This document shows positions 1,266 to 62,453 of a stretch of 64,000 nucleotides of DNA, piece after piece. Source of the stretch: Acidaminococcaceae bacterium (lineage in GTDB: Bacteria; Bacillota; Negativicutes; Acidaminococcales; Acidaminococcaceae); assembly GCA_036788835.1 (NCBI GenBank), contig DAIQMR010000007.1, positions 14,096-78,095 of the forward strand. Reading direction: 5' to 3'. Numbering within the stretch: position 1 is the first letter of the stretch; the number at the start of each line of letters is the position of its first letter. Both the position numbers and the translations under genes were made by a program. The notes below the pieces were generated by a model, which ran no database searches, was not told the origin of the DNA, and saw only the letters and a program-made list of their open reading frames with translations.

Positions 1266-2399
1266 ATGAAAATAACTAATTTGCGAATGGAAAATTTTCG
1301 CAATTATGTAAGTGTTAGTTTACCTTTGGATAATAATATAAATATTATTTACGGTGATAATGCCCAGGGGAAAACCAATTTTCTGGAAGCTATTTATTAT
1401 ACTGCTTTTGGTCTGCCGGCCAGAACCAGAAATGAAGATGAATTGGTTAGATTTACCACTGACAGTTTTTGTTCTGAGGTTAAGTTCACTAATAATTACA
1501 CGGAAAATAAAATTACCGTAAAAAGATGGCAGCAACTGAATAAATGGAAAAAAGAAATATTTTTCAATGATAAAAAAATTTCTGCTAAGGAGCATTACGG
1601 ACTGTTTAACGTAGTGCTTTTTGCCCCTGATGATCTACAGATTGTCAAAGGAGAACCTGGTTTAAGAAGAAAATTTTTAGATATGGAAATTGCTCAGACT
1701 AATAAATATTATTACGAGTTATTAGTTAAGTATAATAAAATATTGTCGCAAAGAAATAAATTTCTTAAAAACGCCAGGGAAACAGCAAAAACAGATGAAA
1801 AACAGCTCAAAATTTGGGATGGGGAATTATCTGACGTAGCTGCAGAAGTTGTGATGATTCGCTTGGTTGCCTTGGAGAAAGTCAGCAAAATAACTACAGA
1901 AATTTATAGCAAAATTACCGAAGCTAAAGAAAATTTTAGTATTGATTATCTTTTAAAAACAGCACAAGATAGTGAAATTGAGAATAAATTTCAAGAAAAA
2001 GCAGAATTTAAGGAATTTTATCTGCAGGAATTAAAAAAAAGGCGAAATTTAGATGTTTTACGCGGTTATACCAGTATTGGTCCTCATAGGGATGACTTGG
2101 TTATTAAAGTAAATAACAATAATTTGCGTTCTTTTGGCTCCCAGGGACAACAAAGAAGCGGCGCCTTAGCTTTAAAATTGGCAGAACTGGAATTTATCAA
2201 AGAAAGCAAAGAAGAATATCCTGTGTTGCTTTTAGATGATGTTATGAGTGAATTGGACATTAACAGACGTAAGCAGTTATTAACTTTTATTAATGGTAAA
2301 GTTCAGACTTTTTTGACTGTGAATGATAAAGAATTAGGAAAATATTTACCTGACAGCAAGTTTTTTTATGTGAAAAATGGTAGTATAAGTGAGGAATAA
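1266..2399 (+). CDS. recF: DNA replication/repair protein RecF
   Basis: 377 aa with Walker A GDNAQGKT, the SMC-like signature region GSQGQQRS and Walker B LLLDDV. It lies downstream of dnaN. Confidence 0.95.
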   Translation: MKITNLRMENFRNYVSVSLPLDNNINIIYGDNAQGKTNFLEAIYYTAFGLPARTRNEDELVRFTTDSFCSEVKFTNNYTENKITVKRWQQLNKWKKEIFFNDKKISAKEHYGLFNVVLFAPDDLQIVKGEPGLRRKFLDMEIAQTNKYYYELLVKYNKILSQRNKFLKNARETAKTDEKQLKIWDGELSDVAAEVVMIRLVALEKVSKITTEIYSKITEAKENFSIDYLLKTAQDSEIENKFQEKAEFKEFYLQELKKRRNLDVLRGYTSIGPHRDDLVIKVNNNNLRSFGSQGQQRSGALALKLAELEFIKESKEEYPVLLLDDVMSELDINRRKQLLTFINGKVQTFLTVNDKELGKYLPDSKFFYVKNGSISEE

Positions 2400-3115
2400 T
2401 GTGAAGGAACTGGAAAGTTGGATATTAAAAGGTCTAAAAACCAATTTTTCTAAGGAGAAATACCTTTTGTATTATCTTCGGGCTAATTGGGATAAAATAG
2501 TAGGAGAAGTTACTGCTAAACACGCCCAGCCTGTTCGACTCATTAACGGGGTGTTAACCGTGAATACAGATAATGCTGCCTGGTCCAATAATCTTTTAAT
2601 GTTAAAAAAACAAGTATTGGGAAAAATTAATGGCTTTATGCCTGTGGAAGCTGGACGTAAACATGCTTTTAAGTTAAAAGATTTAAAATTTTTTACAGGA
2701 AGCCTGCCAGCGGAAGAATCTGTAGAGCAAGTAGAAGAAAGACCTTTTATTCCCAAACTTGATCCTAAGCGAAGATGTCCTGAATGTGGCGTGCCTCTTT
2801 TGCCGGGAGAAAAAATCTGCGGCTGTTGCGAAAGAAAAGAGGCCGGCGTTATTCGGCAGCAAATTCACAAAATGTTGTGTAGGGTACCATGGTTACAACA
2901 TAGTGATTGTGTAAAACAGGTAAATTGTGATAGAATAACATTTAATGGTGTTAAAGCTTCTTTGCTGGAAAATGCAATTTGGCAGGCTTTAAAAAAAGAA
3001 GCAACTCCTGCAGAAAAGCTTTTTCCGGTTATGCTGGAAAGATCTTTAACCCCCGATCAAGTTACAGAAGAAATACTGAAGAAAGCTTTGGCAAGATACA
3101 AAAGGAGCAGAATTT

Positions 3116-5310
<2,195 letters not shown>

Positions 5311-9367: not shown

Positions 9368-9501
9368 TTATCAACAGGCTGTGGATAATGTGGATAAAGG
9401 ATAGAGTATAGGTAATTTTACCCTAAAAACCTTAAATAAATAGCAAAAACAAGGAGTTATCCACCGTATCTGTGGATAACTCCTTGTTAAATTGTGGAAA
9501 A
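9368..9501. promoter_or_regulatory. DnaA-box cluster (6 boxes) downstream of gyrA
   Basis: Boxes TTATCaACA 9368-9376, TGTGGATAA 9380-9388, TGTGGATAA 9389-9397, TTATCCACc 9457-9465, TGTGGATAA 9471-9479 and TGTGGAaAA 9493-9501. The stretch 9451-9485 is a perfect 14-bp inverted repeat, aaggagttatccac/gtggataactcctt. Confidence 0.7.
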
Positions 9502-56374: not shown

Positions 56375-56670
56375 TTATCAACAGGAACGCTTGTTTTGTG
56401 GATTAAATAAGACAAAAGTCCTAAAATATAGCTTTTAAACATATTGCCTGTGGATAAGTTTTATAAGCTAAAAATTTGTTTGTGCACTGGACGCAAATTG
56501 TCAGAAATGTTTAGAAAATACGACAAAAGACCTAGGCCACAAGCGGTTCGCCATCATGTACCCACGAAACAACGAAACAAAGCCATTTGTTACAAAATTG
56601 TAAATTAGTGATAAATAAAACCATTAAGATAACAGTTTATCCACAAGCAAAAATTTCAGCCTGTGGATAA
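56375..56670. promoter_or_regulatory. DnaA-box cluster upstream of tRNA-Arg
   Basis: Boxes TTATCaACA 56375-56383, TGTGGATtA 56397-56405, TGTGGATAA 56449-56457, TTATCCACA 56637-56645 and TGTGGATAA 56662-56670. Confidence 0.6.
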
Positions 56671-56684
56671 GTCTTTGATATTTT

Positions 56685-56761
56685 GGTTCCGTAGCTCAGC
56701 TGGATAGAGCGACCGCCTCCTAAGCGGTAGGTCGGCAGTTCGAATCTGCCCGGGATCACCA
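56685..56761 (+). tRNA. tRNA-Arg (anticodon CCU)
   Basis: Acceptor ggttccg/cgggatc, D-arm gctc-agctggata-gagc, anticodon stem accgc/gcggt with loop ctCCTaa, T-arm ggcag-ttcgaat-ctgcc and an encoded CCA. Confidence 0.92.
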
Positions 56762-56769
56762 GAAAACAT

Positions 56770-56803
56770 GCGCCTCTAGGAGAAATCCTAAAGGCGCTTT
56801 TTT
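56770..56803 (+). terminator. Intrinsic terminator after tRNA-Arg
   Basis: gcgcctctagga-gaaa-tcctaaaggcgc followed by tttttt. Confidence 0.85.
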
Positions 56804-56891
56804 AGTTGGTGTGGCATTCTTGTGGCGATGGTGTTGCAAATAAACTGATAAAATGATAAAATATCAGTGTGAAAGCAACGGAGGTAGTATC

Positions 56892-57491
56892 ATGGATTAT
56901 GAGGAGCAAATCAGAAAACATCTCAAAGAGCATGGCGGTATAATCACAGCAGCATTTTGCCGGGAAAATAATATTCCAACAATATACCTGAGCCGGCTTA
57001 CAACGGCAGGAGTGTTGTCGAGAGTAGAAAAAGGAATTTATTTGACTAAGGACGGAGATTTTGACGAGTATTATTTTTTTCAATATAGATATAGCAAAAC
57101 AATATACTCCTACGAAACTGCAATGTATCTTCTTGGCATCACAGATAAGATTGTACAAAAAATGGATGTAACGGTTAGTTCTGATTATAAGATTAATGCT
57201 GCCAAGCTAAATATTAATGCTCACTACGTTAAAAAATCTATGCTAAATGTTGGCGTGATCAATGTAAAAACCATGTTCGGTAATGTAGTAAGGGCATATT
57301 CTTATGAACGGCTTATTTGTGATTTTATTGCTCATAGAAAAGCGATGGATTCTGAGACATATGGAAAGCTGCTACGTTCTTATGTAAAGTATAAAAACAG
57401 GGATATTAAGGAACTATATAAAATTGCAAGGGCAATAGGGATGGAGGGCAAAGTACACGACGTATTGGAGGTAATATATGAACAAGGATAA
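56892..57491 (+). CDS. abiEi: AbiEi-family antitoxin / transcriptional regulator (type IV TA)
   Basis: 199 aa with the N-terminal wHTH-like GGIITAAFCRENNIPTIYLSRLTTAGVLSRVEKGIYL. It overlaps the downstream AbiEii gene by 14 nt. Confidence 0.75.
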   Translation: MDYEEQIRKHLKEHGGIITAAFCRENNIPTIYLSRLTTAGVLSRVEKGIYLTKDGDFDEYYFFQYRYSKTIYSYETAMYLLGITDKIVQKMDVTVSSDYKINAAKLNINAHYVKKSMLNVGVINVKTMFGNVVRAYSYERLICDFIAHRKAMDSETYGKLLRSYVKYKNRDIKELYKIARAIGMEGKVHDVLEVIYEQG

Positions 57492-58332
57492 GTTGACAGC
57501 AATATGCCACAAAGTAAGAAGTAAAACCGGTTTGCCATTCAATTCTGTTTTAATTTATTTTTTCATGGAAAGCATTTTAAAACGTTTGGCCAAAAGCAAA
57601 TACGGAGAAAAATTTGTTTTCAAGGGAGGGTTCCTGCTTTCCAATATTGTAGGACTTAATACAAGAAGTACAGTTGATATTGATTTGCTTTTGAAAAACG
57701 AAATGCTTTCAGAAGAAAATGTCAGAAAAATATTTAGCGAAATTTTGACGAATAATCATGGTGATGGAATTGCATATTCAATACAAAGTGTTGATCCCAT
57801 ACGTGAAGAAGATCCATATGGTGGTTTTAGAGTTGCAATTTTGTGTAAACTGGATAACATAAGGCAGGTGGTGCCGTTAGATATTGCCACAGGAGATATT
57901 ATTACGCCGGGGCCAATGACCTATAAATATACCAGCGTATTTTTCAATGAAGAATTTGTTGTTAAGGCTTATACCTTGGAGACAATATTGGCAGAGAAAT
58001 TGCAAACTCTTTATGTGAGAAATTTCTTAAATAGCAGGAGCAAGGATTTTTATGACTTTTATATAATTTGTAAAATGCAGAAAGAACATCTGGATCAAAG
58101 GCTGTTGCTTAAAGCTTGTGAGAATACCTTTAGATATAGAGGCACAGAATTCAATTTGCCTGAAATAGAAAATTTGCTTTTGCAATTAAAAGGCAACGAG
58201 TCATTTGCTGTACGGTGGAATGCTTATGCAAAGAAAAATTCGTATGTAGGGATAATTTCGTTTAATGATACGGTAGAAGAAATCTTGAAATTAGTGCACA
58301 ATATGCAGAGAAATGATATGAGGAAGAGTTAG
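57478..58332 (+). CDS. abiEii: AbiEii/AbiGii-family nucleotidyltransferase toxin (DUF1814)
   Basis: 284 aa with FVFKGGFLLS...RSTVDIDLL (the NTase G-G / DxD region) and a later LAEKL helix. Confidence 0.8.
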   Translation: MNKDKLTAICHKVRSKTGLPFNSVLIYFFMESILKRLAKSKYGEKFVFKGGFLLSNIVGLNTRSTVDIDLLLKNEMLSEENVRKIFSEILTNNHGDGIAYSIQSVDPIREEDPYGGFRVAILCKLDNIRQVVPLDIATGDIITPGPMTYKYTSVFFNEEFVVKAYTLETILAEKLQTLYVRNFLNSRSKDFYDFYIICKMQKEHLDQRLLLKACENTFRYRGTEFNLPEIENLLLQLKGNESFAVRWNAYAKKNSYVGIISFNDTVEEILKLVHNMQRNDMRKS

Positions 58333-58346
58333 TATTAGCGGATGCA

Positions 58347-58658
58347 TTAATACTTTGAACCTCCCACGACTAAAGTCGCGGGAGGTTCAAGTAATAGGAC
58401 AAAAGTATTGTTTTTGTGGAAAAAATAAAAAATTCTATTATTGCCGGGACGTAATTCCCAAATATCTTCTTCCAGATGTTTTGTGATTTTATCCGGCAAT
58501 AAAGTTCCGTTATCTTGAAGAAGTTGGATATAAAGAGTTATTTGTTTATATTGAATGCGGGCATCTTTACTGGTCTTAGATTTTAAACGGAGTTTTTCCA
58601 TAAAATCCCATAGTTCGGATTGGTCGGGAAATTTTTCGTAGAATATGACTATGTACAT
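58347..58658 (-). pseudogene. Truncated HigB/Gp49-like (RelE/ParE superfamily) toxin remnant without an antitoxin
   Basis: The EDIWELRPGNNRIFYFFHKNNTFVLL core is present. The C-terminus is replaced by the read-through EPPATLVVGGSKY, which is encoded by a hairpin element. There is no HTH antitoxin ORF downstream. Confidence 0.55.
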
Positions 58659-58745
58659 TACTAGGGCACCAAACCCTTCAATATTGAGTTGTAATTATGA
58701 TAGCATAAATGCTATCAGACGTCAAGGCTGGCTATATTATTGAGA

Positions 58746-58789
58746 AAGCGGAGGTCGGCAGTTCGAATCTGCCCGGGATCACCAGAAAA
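58746..58789 (+). repeat. Direct repeat 2: copy of the tRNA-Arg 3' end (att-like)
   Basis: aagcgg-aggtcggcagttcgaatctgcccgggatcaccagaaaa. The 38-nt core is identical to 56729-56766. Confidence 0.9.
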
Positions 58790-58887
58790 TACGCGCCGTG
58801 CCTCAATTGAGACACGGTGTTTTCATATAATAAAATAGCTTGATTTTCACCATATAATCTAATATAATGCGAGTATGAGGTGAAAAT

Positions 58888-59475
58888 ATGCTTAAAACTA
58901 CGGCTATGATTTTAGACGAATTGAAAGAATATGCGAGTCCGGCTGATAAGTTGACCAGAAAGGTCAAGGCAGGGATGTACATTTCCGTTGTCAAAGGATT
59001 GTATGAAACGGACAAAACAACATCGGGCTATTTATTGGCGGGCAGTATTTATGGGCCGTCTTATTTGTCTTTTGAATTTGCCTTGGCGTATTATGGCTTG
59101 ATACCGGAAGCAGTGTATTCTTTTACCTCAGCAACATTTGAGAAGAAGAAAAAGAAATCATATAACACGCCTTTTGGTTTTTTTACTTATCGGGATATTC
59201 CGTCAGCGGCATATCCATACGGTGTGCAATTAAAAGACGAGGGAGAGTACTCCTATTTAATTGCGTGTCCGGAGAAGGCTTTATGCGACCAGCTGTATAA
59301 AAGCAGGAGAATTAGGAATTATCAGGAATTGTGCAGTCTGCTGTTTGATGACTTGCGGATTGACGAACAAGAATTAGCAAAACTTAATCAAGAAGATATT
59401 GCTTTTTTGGCAACTAAATATAGCAGTATAAATGTGAAGAAATTCAGCGGTTGGCTGAAAAAGGAGAGAAGATGA
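58888..59475 (+). CDS. abiEi: AbiEi-family antitoxin-like protein
   Basis: 195 aa with LTRKVKAGMYISVVKGLYE and YGPSYLSFEFALAYYGLIPEAV, typical of AbiEi-type proteins. Its stop codon overlaps the start of the next gene (ATGA). Confidence 0.65.
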   Translation: MLKTTAMILDELKEYASPADKLTRKVKAGMYISVVKGLYETDKTTSGYLLAGSIYGPSYLSFEFALAYYGLIPEAVYSFTSATFEKKKKKSYNTPFGFFTYRDIPSAAYPYGVQLKDEGEYSYLIACPEKALCDQLYKSRRIRNYQELCSLLFDDLRIDEQELAKLNQEDIAFLATKYSSINVKKFSGWLKKERR

Positions 59476-60338
59476 ATACTACAGTGGAAGCAATGGTCAA
59501 AGCATATAATCCAATAACATCCTACGCTAAGAAAAATACCATGAAAGAAATTATGCAGGAGATCGTTCTGTGCGGATTGAGCAGGTCAGGATTTTTTAAA
59601 GAGGCGGCATTTTACGGTGGTACAGCTTTGCGGATATTTTATGGGCTAGATAGATTCTCCGAAGATTTGGATTTCTCTCTAATGCAGAAGCAATCGGATT
59701 TTGCAATGACAGAATATTTTCCTACTTTGGAACGAGAAGTGCGGTCCTTTGGTCTAAATGTGCAAATAGATAAAAGGGAAAAAACAGTTGAGTCCAATAT
59801 CCAATCGGCATTTTTAAAGGGTAATACCAAAGAACATTTGTTACTCTTTTATCCGGAAGATGCGGACTTAACAAACGTTCCGGCCAATGAAATCATAAAA
59901 ATAAAATTTGAAGTAGATGTCAATCCTCCTGAATATGCGGGATTCGAGAAAAAATATCGGCTTAGACCCATGCCCTACGAAGTGAATATGTATGATGAGG
60001 CGTCTTTATTTGCAGGAAAAATTCATGCTGTTTTGGGAAGAAGTTGGAAGAACAGGGCCAAAGGTAGAGATATCTACGATTATATTTTCTATCTTTCCAA
60101 AAACGCCAAGGTCAATTTAAAACATTTACAAGCCAGACTAATTCAATCAGGACATTTAGGAGTAGATAAAGAATTTTCCATAGATATCCTGAAAAAACAG
60201 TTGCGAAATAGGTTTGCCGGCATAGATTATGCACAAGCGAAAGCAGATGTGCTTCCCTTTATCCAAAACGCAGAGGTACTGAATGTCTGGAATGCAGCGT
60301 TCTTCACGCAAATAACAGAAGAATTGAAGGAAGAGTAA
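59472..60338 (+). CDS. abiEii: AbiEii/AbiGii-family nucleotidyltransferase toxin
   Basis: 288 aa with FYGGTALRIFYGLDRFSEDLDFS. RBS aaggag lies 5 nt upstream. Confidence 0.8.
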   Translation: MNTTVEAMVKAYNPITSYAKKNTMKEIMQEIVLCGLSRSGFFKEAAFYGGTALRIFYGLDRFSEDLDFSLMQKQSDFAMTEYFPTLEREVRSFGLNVQIDKREKTVESNIQSAFLKGNTKEHLLLFYPEDADLTNVPANEIIKIKFEVDVNPPEYAGFEKKYRLRPMPYEVNMYDEASLFAGKIHAVLGRSWKNRAKGRDIYDYIFYLSKNAKVNLKHLQARLIQSGHLGVDKEFSIDILKKQLRNRFAGIDYAQAKADVLPFIQNAEVLNVWNAAFFTQITEELKEE

Positions 60339-60345
60339 GATGTAA

Positions 60346-60423
60346 CGGTAGGTCGGCAGTTCGAATCTGCTCGGGAGCACCACATAAGTATGCGCCTTTA
60401 GGAGAAATCCTAAAGGCGCTTTT
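60346..60423 (+). repeat. Direct repeat 3: diverged copy of the tRNA-Arg 3' end plus its terminator
   Basis: cggtaggtcggcagttcgaatctgcTcgggaGcacca (2 substitutions), followed by a near-identical terminator hairpin gcgcctttagga-gaaa-tcctaaaggcgc at 60392-60423. Confidence 0.85.
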
Positions 60424-60432
60424 ATGACCTTA

Positions 60433-60479
60433 CACGCCGCACACTCGTGACTTCAGCCGTGAGTTAGGCGTGCTTTTTT
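60433..60479 (+). terminator. Terminator-like composite hairpin
   Basis: The outer stem cacgcc/ggcgtg encloses ctcgtgacttcagccgtgag and is followed by tttttt. Confidence 0.55.
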
Positions 60480-60567: not shown

Positions 60568-60803
60568 AAAACTGCAAGCTATTTAAAAATGTAAGTTTTG
60601 TGAGCTACTAATAATGAAACGCACAAAACATCCTTTATTAAACTACCGTAGGAACTACGGGAAGTAACGCTTGCGGAGACGGTGTAAGACGCATGAGCTT
60701 GTGCTATGCGCAGTCGTCAGCGAAGCAAGAATACCGCGACTTCAGTCGTGGGGGGTTCAAAAAGTAACAAGAAAATAATACAAACAGAAAGGAAAGAAAA
60801 TTT

Positions 60804-62453
60804 ATGAAAAAGTACCAGTTGAATGTACCCACACCCCATCGTTTTACCTTTGCTGTCCGCCATATTCCCAGTGTGACAGTGGAACAAAGAGAAAGAGTCC
60901 TAAAAGCCACCCACTACAATGAATTTGCGTTTCCATCCGGCATGCTGACCATAGACATGCTTTCAGATTCCGGAACAACAGCCATGACCAATACTCAGTG
61001 GGCTTCCATGTTTCTGGGAGATGAAGCATATGGCCGCAATACAGGTTATTATGTGCTGCTCGATACCTTCCGGGATATTTTTGAACGGGGCGGCGAGAAG
61101 CATTGGCACAAAGCCTTGGATTTGGTAAGAACTGATTGCCGAGATGTTGAAAAGATGATGAAAGAACTTTATCTTTGTGAATATGAAGGCGGTTTTTTCA
61201 ATGGCGGCAGTAAGCAAATGGAACGTCCCAATGCCTTCATTATCCAACAGGGACGGGCCGCCGAATCTGTTTTAATGGAAATCGTCAAGAACATCTTGAA
61301 CCGCAGAGAACCAGGCAGGAAATATATCATTCCGTCCAATGGACATTTCGACACCACCGAAGGAAATATAAAACAGATGGGTTCCATTCCGAGAAACTTG
61401 TATAATAGAAAGCTATTATGGGAAGTCCCGACAGGCGGGTGCTATAAAAAGAATCCCTTTAAAGGCAATATGGATATGGAAAAATTGGATCAGCTGATTC
61501 AAAATTCCGGCCCGGAAAATGTGCCTCTTGTGTTCTGCTGCATCACGAATAATCCTGTTTGCGGGCAGCCCGTTTCTATGGAAAACCTGAAAGAAATAAA
61601 CCGGGTTGCCCACAAATATAATATTCCTGTTGTCTTTGATGCTGCCAGGTGGGCCGAAAATGCTTACTTTATCAAGATGAACGAAAGTGGTTACGAGGAT
61701 AAATCCATTGGGGAAATCACCACGGAAATGTTCAGCTATTGTGATGTGTTCGCCATGTCTGCCAAGAAGAACGGTCATTCAAATATGGGCGGCATGTTGG
61801 CATTCAGGGATCAAGGTTTGTTTTGGAAAAAATTCTCGGATTTTGCCGAGGATGGGACCATCAAAACTGACGTGGGCGTGTTGCTGAAAGTAAAACAAAT
61901 CTCCTGCTATGGAAACGATTCTTACGGCGGTATGTCCGGTCATGATATCATGGCACTAGCTACGGGCCTATACGAAGAGTGCAATTTTGACTATCAGCAG
62001 GAAAGAGTAGAGCAAGTGGAATACCTAGCACAAGGTTTCTATAATGCGGGTGTAAAGGGCGTAGTGCTTCCTGTCGGTGGTCATGCAGTATATATCAATA
62101 TGGATGAATTTTTTGCTGGCAAGAGAAGTCATGAATCTTTTGCCGGTGCAGGATTTGCCTTGGAATTAATCCGCCGGTATGGGATTCGCGTGGCTGAATT
62201 AGGCGATTATTCCATGGAATATGATTTGAAGACACCGGAACAACAGGCGGAAGTTTGTAATGTTGTGCGGTTCGCCATCGATAGAAGCCGTCTCAGCAAG
62301 GAGCATTTGGACTATGTTATTGCCGCAGTAAAAGAATTATATGATGACAGGGCAACCATTCCCAACATGAAAATAACCTGGGGGGAAAAATTGCCAATGC
62401 GCCATTTCCACGCTTTTCTTGAACCCTACGCTCCCACAGACGCAGAAAAATAG
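60804..62453 (+). CDS. Beta-eliminating lyase family protein (long-form tryptophanase / tyrosine phenol-lyase-like)
   Basis: 549 aa with MLSDSGTTAMT, GDEAYG, the PLP-lysine region FAMSAKKNGHSNMGG, and RFAIDRSRLSKEHLDYV matching the TnaA/TPL C-terminal motif. Confidence 0.85.
   Translation: MKKYQLNVPTPHRFTFAVRHIPSVTVEQRERVLKATHYNEFAFPSGMLTIDMLSDSGTTAMTNTQWASMFLGDEAYGRNTGYYVLLDTFRDIFERGGEKHWHKALDLVRTDCRDVEKMMKELYLCEYEGGFFNGGSKQMERPNAFIIQQGRAAESVLMEIVKNILNRREPGRKYIIPSNGHFDTTEGNIKQMGSIPRNLYNRKLLWEVPTGGCYKKNPFKGNMDMEKLDQLIQNSGPENVPLVFCCITNNPVCGQPVSMENLKEINRVAHKYNIPVVFDAARWAENAYFIKMNESGYEDKSIGEITTEMFSYCDVFAMSAKKNGHSNMGGMLAFRDQGLFWKKFSDFAEDGTIKTDVGVLLKVKQISCYGNDSYGGMSGHDIMALATGLYEECNFDYQQERVEQVEYLAQGFYNAGVKGVVLPVGGHAVYINMDEFFAGKRSHESFAGAGFALELIRRYGIRVAELGDYSMEYDLKTPEQQAEVCNVVRFAIDRSRLSKEHLDYVIAAVKELYDDRATIPNMKITWGEKLPMRHFHAFLEPYAPTDAEK

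Follow-up and report, generated by a model that had tools for sequence, protein, structure and literature searches.

A tRNA-Arg(CCU) gene of an uncultured Acidaminococcaceae bacterium followed by a probable tandem array of small, integrase-less toxin-antitoxin cassettes

Introduction

cis-mobilizable elements (CIMEs) retain the attachment (att) sites attL and attR, have lost their integration and transfer genes, and are found stacked with other elements at the 3' end of a tRNA gene or another gene, through a process referred to as accretion (PMC5704250). Examples include elements related to ICESt1 and ICESt3 of Streptococcus thermophilus and the tRNA-Lys islands of S. agalactiae (PMC5704250). 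Arrays of partial tRNA copies left by successive integrations also occur in the tycheposon islands of Prochlorococcus (10.1101/2020.12.28.424599). Here, we describe the 3.7 kb downstream of a tRNA-Arg(CCU) gene within a 64-kb stretch of DNA (the window; contig DAIQMR010000007.1 of assembly GCA_036788835.1) from an uncultured member of the Acidaminococcaceae. This locus carries three copies of the tRNA 3' half and two gene pairs predicted to encode AbiE toxin-antitoxin (TA) systems. We consider it probable that the locus is a tandem array of small, integrase-less, CIME-like cassettes that were integrated by a tyrosine recombinase and later partly decayed.

The locus belongs to a known kind of integration-hotspot array and is unusual mainly in the smallness and uniformity of its units. 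As with CIMEs, each unit is flanked by direct repeats that copy the target gene's 3' end and is devoid of genes for integration and transfer, and the units follow one another in tandem where integrase-bearing elements (here in related genera) also integrate. They differ from CIMEs in being far smaller (0.7 to 1.7 kb), in being pure TA/defense modules, and in having no detectable sequence relation to a parental integrative and conjugative element or integrative mobilizable element (IME); any mobilization of the window units, in cis or in trans, would be putative. As in tycheposons, newcomers would integrate at the tRNA gene and displace older elements inward, partial copies of the tRNA remain between the units, and degenerated elements accumulate. 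In contrast to tycheposons, the host belongs to another phylum, the recombinase would belong to another family, and the array has no integrase fragments and only TA or abortive infection (Abi) cargo. Integrons, among them the Vibrio superintegrons with their TA cassettes, likewise gather integrase-less cassettes at a single platform and frequently contain TA modules. The window locus is not an integron cassette array: it has neither intI nor attC, its repeat is a tRNA 3' half, and its cassettes have their own promoter-like sites and terminators.

Repeats and terminators at the tRNA-Arg(CCU) gene

Coordinates are positions in the window, and att copies are numbered 1 to 3 from the tRNA gene outward. 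The intact tRNA-Arg(CCU) gene (56685..56761, plus strand) was identified with ARAGORN (CCT call) and Rfam (RF00005, 65 bits), and its acceptor stem (GGTTCCG/CGGGATC) is also found in relatives. Comparing the window with itself bore out the repeats described in an original prediction made from the sequence: the 38-mer of 56729-56766 is found again without any change at 58752-58789, a repetition far above chance expectation within 64 kb, and with two substitutions at 60346-60382. Copy 1 (attL; 56717-56766, plus strand) is the tRNA 3' half from the anticodon loop onward plus 5 flanking nucleotides, and by BLAST it equals copy 2 of the related locus L087. Copy 2 (58746..58789, plus strand) corresponds to the 3' part of the tRNA, AAGCGG(-T)AGGTCGG...CACCAGAAAA, its similarity extending to AAGCGG at 58746 if a 1-nt deletion is allowed. 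In copy 3 (60343..60382, plus strand; TAA(-G)CGGTAGG...CACCA), similarity likewise begins, with a one-base deletion, at the TAA-CGG of 60343, so both copies start in or beside the anticodon loop. Copy 3 begins 5 nt past the stop codon of AbiEii-2 (see below), carries exactly two substitutions (C to T in the T-stem and T to G at acceptor position 71), and has a flank unlike those of copies 1 and 2. We take it as the probable attR, the 3' half that originally belonged to the tRNA gene and was later displaced.

Each of the three copies is followed by a terminator hairpin. Terminator T1 and its T-run (56768..56803, plus strand; hairpin proper at 56768-56801) directly follow the tRNA gene, as the same hairpin does in the cassette-free relative L196. 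A different hairpin with a T-run, T2 (58796..58825, plus strand; hairpin at 58796-58817), follows copy 2. The terminator after copy 3, T1' (60390..60423, plus strand), is identical to T1 at 33 of 34 positions, in agreement with the earlier claim that the tRNA terminator is duplicated near 60392-60423, and is probably the native terminator of the tRNA gene. The cargo between the copies is unrelated from unit to unit and low in G+C, which falls from approximately 45% in the flanks to 33 to 40% inside the array.

The repeats are longer than common assembler k-mers, and contigs of the Logan collection break at them, which would be expected if the array were an artifact, either a misassembly across the repeated 38-mer or a local duplication of the tRNA 3' end without any mobile-element history. 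However, the independent Logan assembly of SRR2043641 yields contigs that match 56737-58382 and 58760-60471 without a difference, and the latter contig spans cassette 2, copy 3, T1', and the downstream sequence. Because an independent assembly reproduces these array segments, misassembly is unlikely. In addition, long JGI/ENA contigs from several samples show an equivalent tRNA-AbiE-1-copy structure, and the unrelated, lower-G+C cargo between the copies is not what a local duplication would leave. We therefore regard an artifact as scarcely credible.

The T-stem pair at 56733/56749 is G-C in the window tRNA gene and copy 2 and A-T in L087 and L196, and copy 3 shows a mixed G-T state. The difference between the window and its relatives appears to be a compensatory change, and the distribution of the three states argues that the expressed 3' half was replaced as a unit. 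We found no support for the orphan tRNA halves acting as functional RNAs or as decoys for a tRNA-modifying toxin, since Rfam recognizes the intact tRNA only and their role as att sites is explanation enough. A psRNA14 match in Rfam at 58349-58413 was dismissed (28 bits versus a threshold of 60).

Cargo of the array

AbiE systems (AbiEi/AbiEii and AbiGI/AbiGII) are type IV TA and Abi systems in which a gene for a winged-helix AbiEi protein precedes and overlaps one for a DUF1814 nucleotidyltransferase, and both gene pairs of the window have this bicistronic organization. In pair 1, the predicted winged-helix antitoxin/repressor AbiEi-1 (56892..57491, plus strand; PF13338, E = 3e-8; PADLOC AbiEi, E = 9e-61) overlaps by 14 nt the predicted nucleotidyltransferase toxin AbiEii-1 (57478..58332, plus strand; PF08843, E = 6e-44; PADLOC AbiEii, E = 1e-91). 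AbiEi-1 matches the solved structures of AbiEi (6y8q) and AbiGI (9hlo_A) with E values of about 4e-54, AbiEii-1 matches AbiGII (9hlo_B; E = 1e-90), and the translation of AbiEii-1 shows the GG...DID nucleotidyltransferase motif (KGGF...DID). The control region of the pair (56808..56862, plus strand) combines TGTGGC-type tandem repeats (56808-56838), which are a candidate operator, with a promoter-like site, TTGCAA-17-TAAAAT (56834-56862).

Pair 2 represents a distant subfamily that is recognized by profile searches only. The predicted AbiEi-2 (58888..59475, plus strand; PADLOC AbiEi PDLC02230, E = 5e-67) has no match in Pfam or among PDB sequences. It overlaps by 4 nt (ATGA) the predicted DUF1814 nucleotidyltransferase AbiEii-2 (59472..60338, plus strand; PF08843, E = 3e-31; PADLOC PDLC02293, E = 6e-107), which shows a GG...DLD motif (YGGT...DLD) and whose best PDB matches are weak (4o8s and 4ok0, E = 0.006). 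Upstream (58840..58887, plus strand), a promoter-like site (TTGATT-17-TATAAT) overlaps the inverted repeat TTTTCACC...GGTGAAAA (arms at 58843-58859 and 58871-58887), which is a candidate AbiEi operator. The same inverted repeat occurs upstream of a 68%-identical AbiE-2-type pair in locus L218. The two pairs of the window can hardly be aligned with each other (BLASTP E values of 0.004 and 0.014). The original prediction of one AbiEi/AbiEii pair per unit, with no recognizable similarity between the pairs, thus agrees with the profile matches, the gene overlaps, and this comparison, and we assign the pairs on sequence criteria to different subfamilies of predicted AbiE systems. Classical AbiE systems are plasmid-borne or chromosomal without att flanks, in contrast to the att-flanked predicted pairs of the window.

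The unit between copies 1 and 2 contains a further module, on the minus strand. A Gp49/HigB-like toxin pseudogene with a truncated C terminus (58347..58658; PF05973, model positions 11-67 of 90) has a promoter-like site at 58725-58697 (promoter scan) and is accompanied by a 15-nt stub (agcggatgcattaat; 58337..58351) of a HigA-like helix-turn-helix (HTH) antitoxin gene, which was recognized by comparison with L087 (11085-11363 and flanks). The region of the toxin promoter (58597-58752) is 90% identical to L087 11376-11530, and the Gp49-like segment has 73% DNA identity to a gene of a Monoglobales phage. An intact toxin gene with an adjacent HTH antitoxin gene, as in a HigBA-like type II TA system, is absent here, and the module is a remnant. 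Relatives have the reverse arrangement, with the antitoxin kept and the Gp49-like toxin reduced to a 22-codon stub. At this position, relatives also have an att copy, its terminator, and most of higA, all of which are deleted in the window. Since relatives hold a tRNA copy between AbiE-1 and the higBA-like module, unit 1 corresponds to two former modules. The array thus consists of three modules, with the att copy between AbiE-1 and the HigBA-like remnant lost in the window. The description of the locus as two cassettes therefore holds for the repeats but missed this remnant and the loss of one att copy.

A perfect hairpin resembling a repetitive extragenic palindrome (TTGAACCYCCCACGACT plus complement; 58355..58390, no strand assigned) lies at the deletion scar, next to the higA stub. 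A related copy of it is found at 60744-60760, upstream of a beta-eliminating lyase gene (3 matches in total versus 0.16 expected).

Alleles of the locus in related lineages

A related species, whose PPK is 91% identical to that of the window, is present in many metagenomes (loci L084 and L086 to L092). In L086 to L092, the order is ppk, a small open reading frame (ORF), a DnaA-box region, tRNA-Arg, T1, AbiEi-1, AbiEii-1, a 50-nt tRNA copy, and a different terminator, beyond which lie a minus-strand gene for a 92-aa HTH (HigA-like) protein, the 22-codon Gp49-like stub with its promoter region, and, directly after these, the 3' part of a metQ-like gene. The 50-nt copy in L087-type loci begins exactly at the anticodon loop (CTCCTAAGCGG...), and in L087, AbiE-1 stands alone between two 50-nt copies. 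A third lineage (L196) has the tRNA gene and T1, no cassette, and an intact metQ. Two variants of the related species are visibly decaying: in L096 (2519-4866), an IS21 element (IstA/IstB) is inserted at the 3' end of AbiEii-1, and in L227/L228, AbiEii-1 is truncated by a deletion of ~55 nt (231-aa form), the second copy and higA are missing, and metQ is intact. Both changes are predicted to inactivate the AbiEii-1 toxin. Cassette-free (L196), one-AbiE (L087), and decaying (L096 and L228) states thus exist beside the multimodule state of the window, and they support the serial accretion of minimal TA/defense cargo at a tRNA hotspot that had been proposed for the locus.

Sequence identity between the window and L087 switches at the tRNA gene. 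The ppx and ppk genes are 79% identical at the DNA level (53% at third codon positions), compared with 97% from the tRNA gene through AbiEi-1 (92% at third codon positions) and 93% in AbiEii-1. Given this excess over the backbone, AbiE-1, perhaps together with the HigBA module, has recently moved between lineages separated at about the genus level. No copy of AbiE-1 was found at any other site or outside this clade.

Homologous recombination following transformation or transduction could also have produced the present distribution without any site-specific recombination, with the tRNA gene, terminator, and copies serving as portable flanking homology and the repeats being old scars. The sharp rise in identity begins at the tRNA gene itself, AbiE-1 carries a native-like T1, AbiE-1 and the HigBA remnant are adjacent in both lineages, which suggests passage as a single block, and illegitimate deletions are numerous at the locus, all of which fit such a process. 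However, the available homology is short (~120 nt to the left and hardly any to the right, where the lineages diverge), and recombination leaves unexplained why a tRNA copy terminates each module. Integrase-type events would still be needed to create the copies, given that their left boundary is that of integrase-bearing elements (see below). We consider this explanation improbable.

In L196 (1148-1264) and L228 (1836-1952), a 38-aa ORF rich in Met and Cys (MKTYSNVSNMNMMMMCMLNSMCTVVMSSNV...) and a terminator-like hairpin lie directly upstream of the gene for the MetQ-like lipoprotein; the ORF is a candidate methionine-sensing leader peptide.

Use of the same tRNA gene as an integration site in gut genomes

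A metagenome scan with a T-arm/acceptor pattern yielded 120 loci. In many of these, on Phascolarctobacterium-like contigs from the human gut, tRNA-Arg(CCU) is preceded by the same small ORF. Orphan copies of the 3' half, about thirty in all, start at the same anticodon-loop position (CTCCTAAGCGG...), after unrelated AT-rich sequence. On single contigs, the distance from the tRNA gene to the orphan copy is 3.2, 9.9, 12, 15.6, 15.7, 27, or 48.7 kb. Several of these gut islands encode PF00589 tyrosine integrases beside the tRNA gene together with a MobA/MobL relaxase and are, judged by these genes, IMEs. The repeat boundaries in the window coincide with those of these integrase-bearing elements at the same tRNA gene (in related genera rather than the window's own species), and no sequence relation between the window cassettes and the integrase-bearing gut islands was detected. 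Empty tRNA-Arg(CCU) sites are also present (L106 and others). At the gut loci, every copy has its own terminator. In occupied loci (L099, L100, L103, and others), the distal orphan copy is followed by the terminator that stands after the tRNA gene at the empty site L106. Such a pattern agrees with the classical model, in which the 3' half and terminator beside the tRNA gene come from the incoming element and those native to the gene end up at attR.

One of the gut islands is itself integrase-less. This 3.2-kb island, located between tRNA-Arg(CCU) and a 47-nt orphan copy in two gut contigs (L115, oriented 1933-5201, and L140 plus L099), encodes PDC-M48A and PDC-M48B (a candidate defense system) and a Zn-dependent phospholipase-C-like protein. 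Integrase-less defense cassettes with att boundaries thus recur at tRNA-Arg(CCU).

Search for a recombinase and for related cassettes

No integrase, transposase, or relaxase Pfam domain was found in any ORF of >=150 aa in the 64-kb window, and a tblastn search of the window with the integrases of the gut elements returned no match. All ORFs between the att copies were annotated, and none is an integrase, excisionase, transfer, or replication gene, as the original prediction had claimed for integration and replication functions. A scan of viral contigs with the att pattern, the TGTGGCATT motif, and AbiEii-1 found nothing, and a scan with AbiEii-2 found one uninformative provirus end (L231). Plasmid and phage collections contained nothing above ~75% DNA identity to the cassettes. 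Exact-protein look-ups with both AbiEii proteins and the lyase returned one sample only (SRR2043641). Apart from that sample, no protein more than 70% identical to AbiEii-2 was found among 5.8 billion proteins; lacking a close relative, AbiE-2 cannot be traced in its movements.

A more distant AbiE-2-type pair (the 68%-identical pair mentioned above) lies between ugd and wzi in an unrelated genome (L218, 5219-7097). It is flanked by 54- to 58-nt direct repeats of the ugd 3' end, of which the right copy has a 4-nt insertion, and integrase genes are absent within 6 kb. At a second AbiE-2-type locus (L223), no convincing repeat flanks the pair. With one clear case against one without, flanking repeats are not established as a general rule for AbiE-2-type pairs.

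In L087, a near copy of the 20- to 22-nt motif GTGTGGCATT(2-3 nt)TGTGGCGA from the start of the AbiE-1 cassette is also found at its far end, ~40 nt before copy 2. Located just inside both cassette ends, the motif is placed like arm-type recombinase sites and could serve as such, and it is equally a candidate AbiEi operator.

These data bear on the possibility that the cassettes have always been minimal and that a tyrosine integrase whose gene lies at another site, e.g., on an IME, mobilizes them in trans at present, in which case tRNA-Arg(CCU) would be an integron-like platform and not a graveyard of decayed islands. Several observations point in this direction: (i) the left boundaries of AbiE-1 are identical, with 93 to 97% identity, in two lineages whose backbone identity is 79%; (ii) AbiE-1 in L087 is precisely bounded by two 50-nt copies; (iii) the GTGTGGCATT(2-3 nt)TGTGGCGA motif just inside both ends has an arm-type-like position; (iv) the three modules, each 0.7 to 1.7 kb, are a TA pair and nothing else; (v) the 3.2-kb integrase-less PDC-M48 cassette has precise att boundaries in two different gut contigs; and (vi) the AbiE-2-type pair of L218 has ugd repeats and no integrase nearby. 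However, a cognate integrase was not identified in our searches, AbiE-1 was not found at other sites or outside its clade, AbiE-2 has no close relative by which movement could be documented, and L223 has no convincing repeat. Many alleles are visibly decaying through lost copies, truncated toxins, or an insertion sequence (IS), and the TGTGGC motif is equally explicable as an AbiEi operator. We regard continuing movement of always-minimal cassettes as possible but rather unlikely.

Host and neighboring features

The window starts with dnaN (at 149), recF, gyrB, gyrA, and dnaB and is thus origin-proximal, and it encodes outer-membrane beta-barrel proteins. In a set of species-representative genomes, its PPK has no close counterpart and is most similar (70%) to those of Phascolarctobacterium-labeled contigs, among them one evidently mislabeled Duodenibacillus. 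In a protein collection, it is 71 to 72% identical to named Acidaminococcus proteins and <=76% identical to unnamed sequences, besides the close lineages at 90 to 91%. The bacterium itself is an uncultured, gut-type member of the Acidaminococcaceae.

The window contains seven perfect DnaA boxes (TTATCCACA), compared with 0.48 expected, which form two clusters. Cluster 1 (56449-56670) lies directly upstream of tRNA-Arg, with boxes at -23, -48, and -236, and cluster 2 (9380-9479) follows gyrA. Relatives have four DnaA boxes at matching positions in a spacer that is only about 77 to 82% identical. The cluster beside the tRNA gene may either be a promoter regulated by DnaA or serve to titrate this protein.

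Downstream of the array, the beta-eliminating lyase gene (60804-62453; tryptophanase/tyrosine phenol-lyase family) is followed by a gene for an SNF-family transporter. Its long leader contains a 17-codon ORF (MKRTKHPLLNYRRNYGK; 60615-60668), which may encode a regulatory leader peptide. A contig labeled Duodenibacillus sp. (a betaproteobacterium; L004) has the Phascolarctobacterium-like ppk, the small ORF, and tRNA-Arg(CCU), and is probably a binning contaminant in that metagenome-assembled genome.

Discussion

The tandem array of CIME-like cassettes that we favor could have arisen as follows. A tyrosine recombinase, encoded elsewhere or since lost, would join the attP of an element with the tRNA 3' half from the anticodon loop onward. 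The incoming element would supply its own 3' half and terminator, so that the tRNA gene stays intact and the earlier copy is shifted to the right. The newest element would then lie nearest the tRNA gene, and we infer that the likely order of arrival was AbiE-2, followed by the HigBA-like module and then by AbiE-1. Under this scheme, AbiE-2 would adjoin the displaced and slightly decayed original 3' half with the native terminator (copy 3 and T1'), and a later deletion would have removed the att copy and most of higBA between AbiE-1 and copy 2.

Each surviving AbiE pair would be a self-contained unit with its own promoter or promoter-like site. AbiEi would repress the operon and neutralize AbiEii. 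The mycobacterial DUF1814 relatives (MenT) modify tRNA acceptor ends, and by analogy, AbiEii may arrest growth through acceptor-end modification, leading to abortive infection and addiction. Addiction would account for modules that outlast the rest of their carrier.

Several points weigh against this scenario. The cassettes have no sequence relation to the integrase-bearing elements of related genera, so that their derivation from such elements is unsupported, and the 64 kb examined from the window's own lineage revealed no integrase of this specificity. No excision product or empty site was seen in the window's own species, which is carried by one sample. The terminator of AbiE-1 is 97% identical to the presumed native one, which the simple model accommodates only if one further supposes that the element originated within the clade or that gene conversion took place. 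Finally, only 4 nt separate the stop codon of AbiEii-2 from copy 3, which leaves no room for a classical attP arm on that side.

The abundant deletions, truncated toxins, and IS insertion favor decay from larger islands, and the precise, compact boundaries favor small cassettes moved in trans. A broader generalization, which we advance with considerable doubt, is that tRNA-Arg(CCU) serves across the Acidaminococcaceae as an integron-like platform at which minimal, promoter-bearing defense/TA cassettes, each with its own 3' half and terminator, are inserted, stacked, and exchanged by an integrase encoded elsewhere. AbiE pairs flanked by target-gene 3' ends (tRNA-Arg here and ugd in L218) would then form one widespread class.

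The locus is a small, clean example of defense/addiction modules piling up at a tRNA hotspot in related uncultured Negativicutes, and it shows that one TA operon with an att copy can suffice as a persisting or traveling unit. Should the units be scars only, they would be addiction modules that have outlived the islands that brought them. If they are moved in trans, tRNA hotspots would be cassette platforms for defense genes, which would be relevant to the exchange of phage resistance among gut anaerobes.

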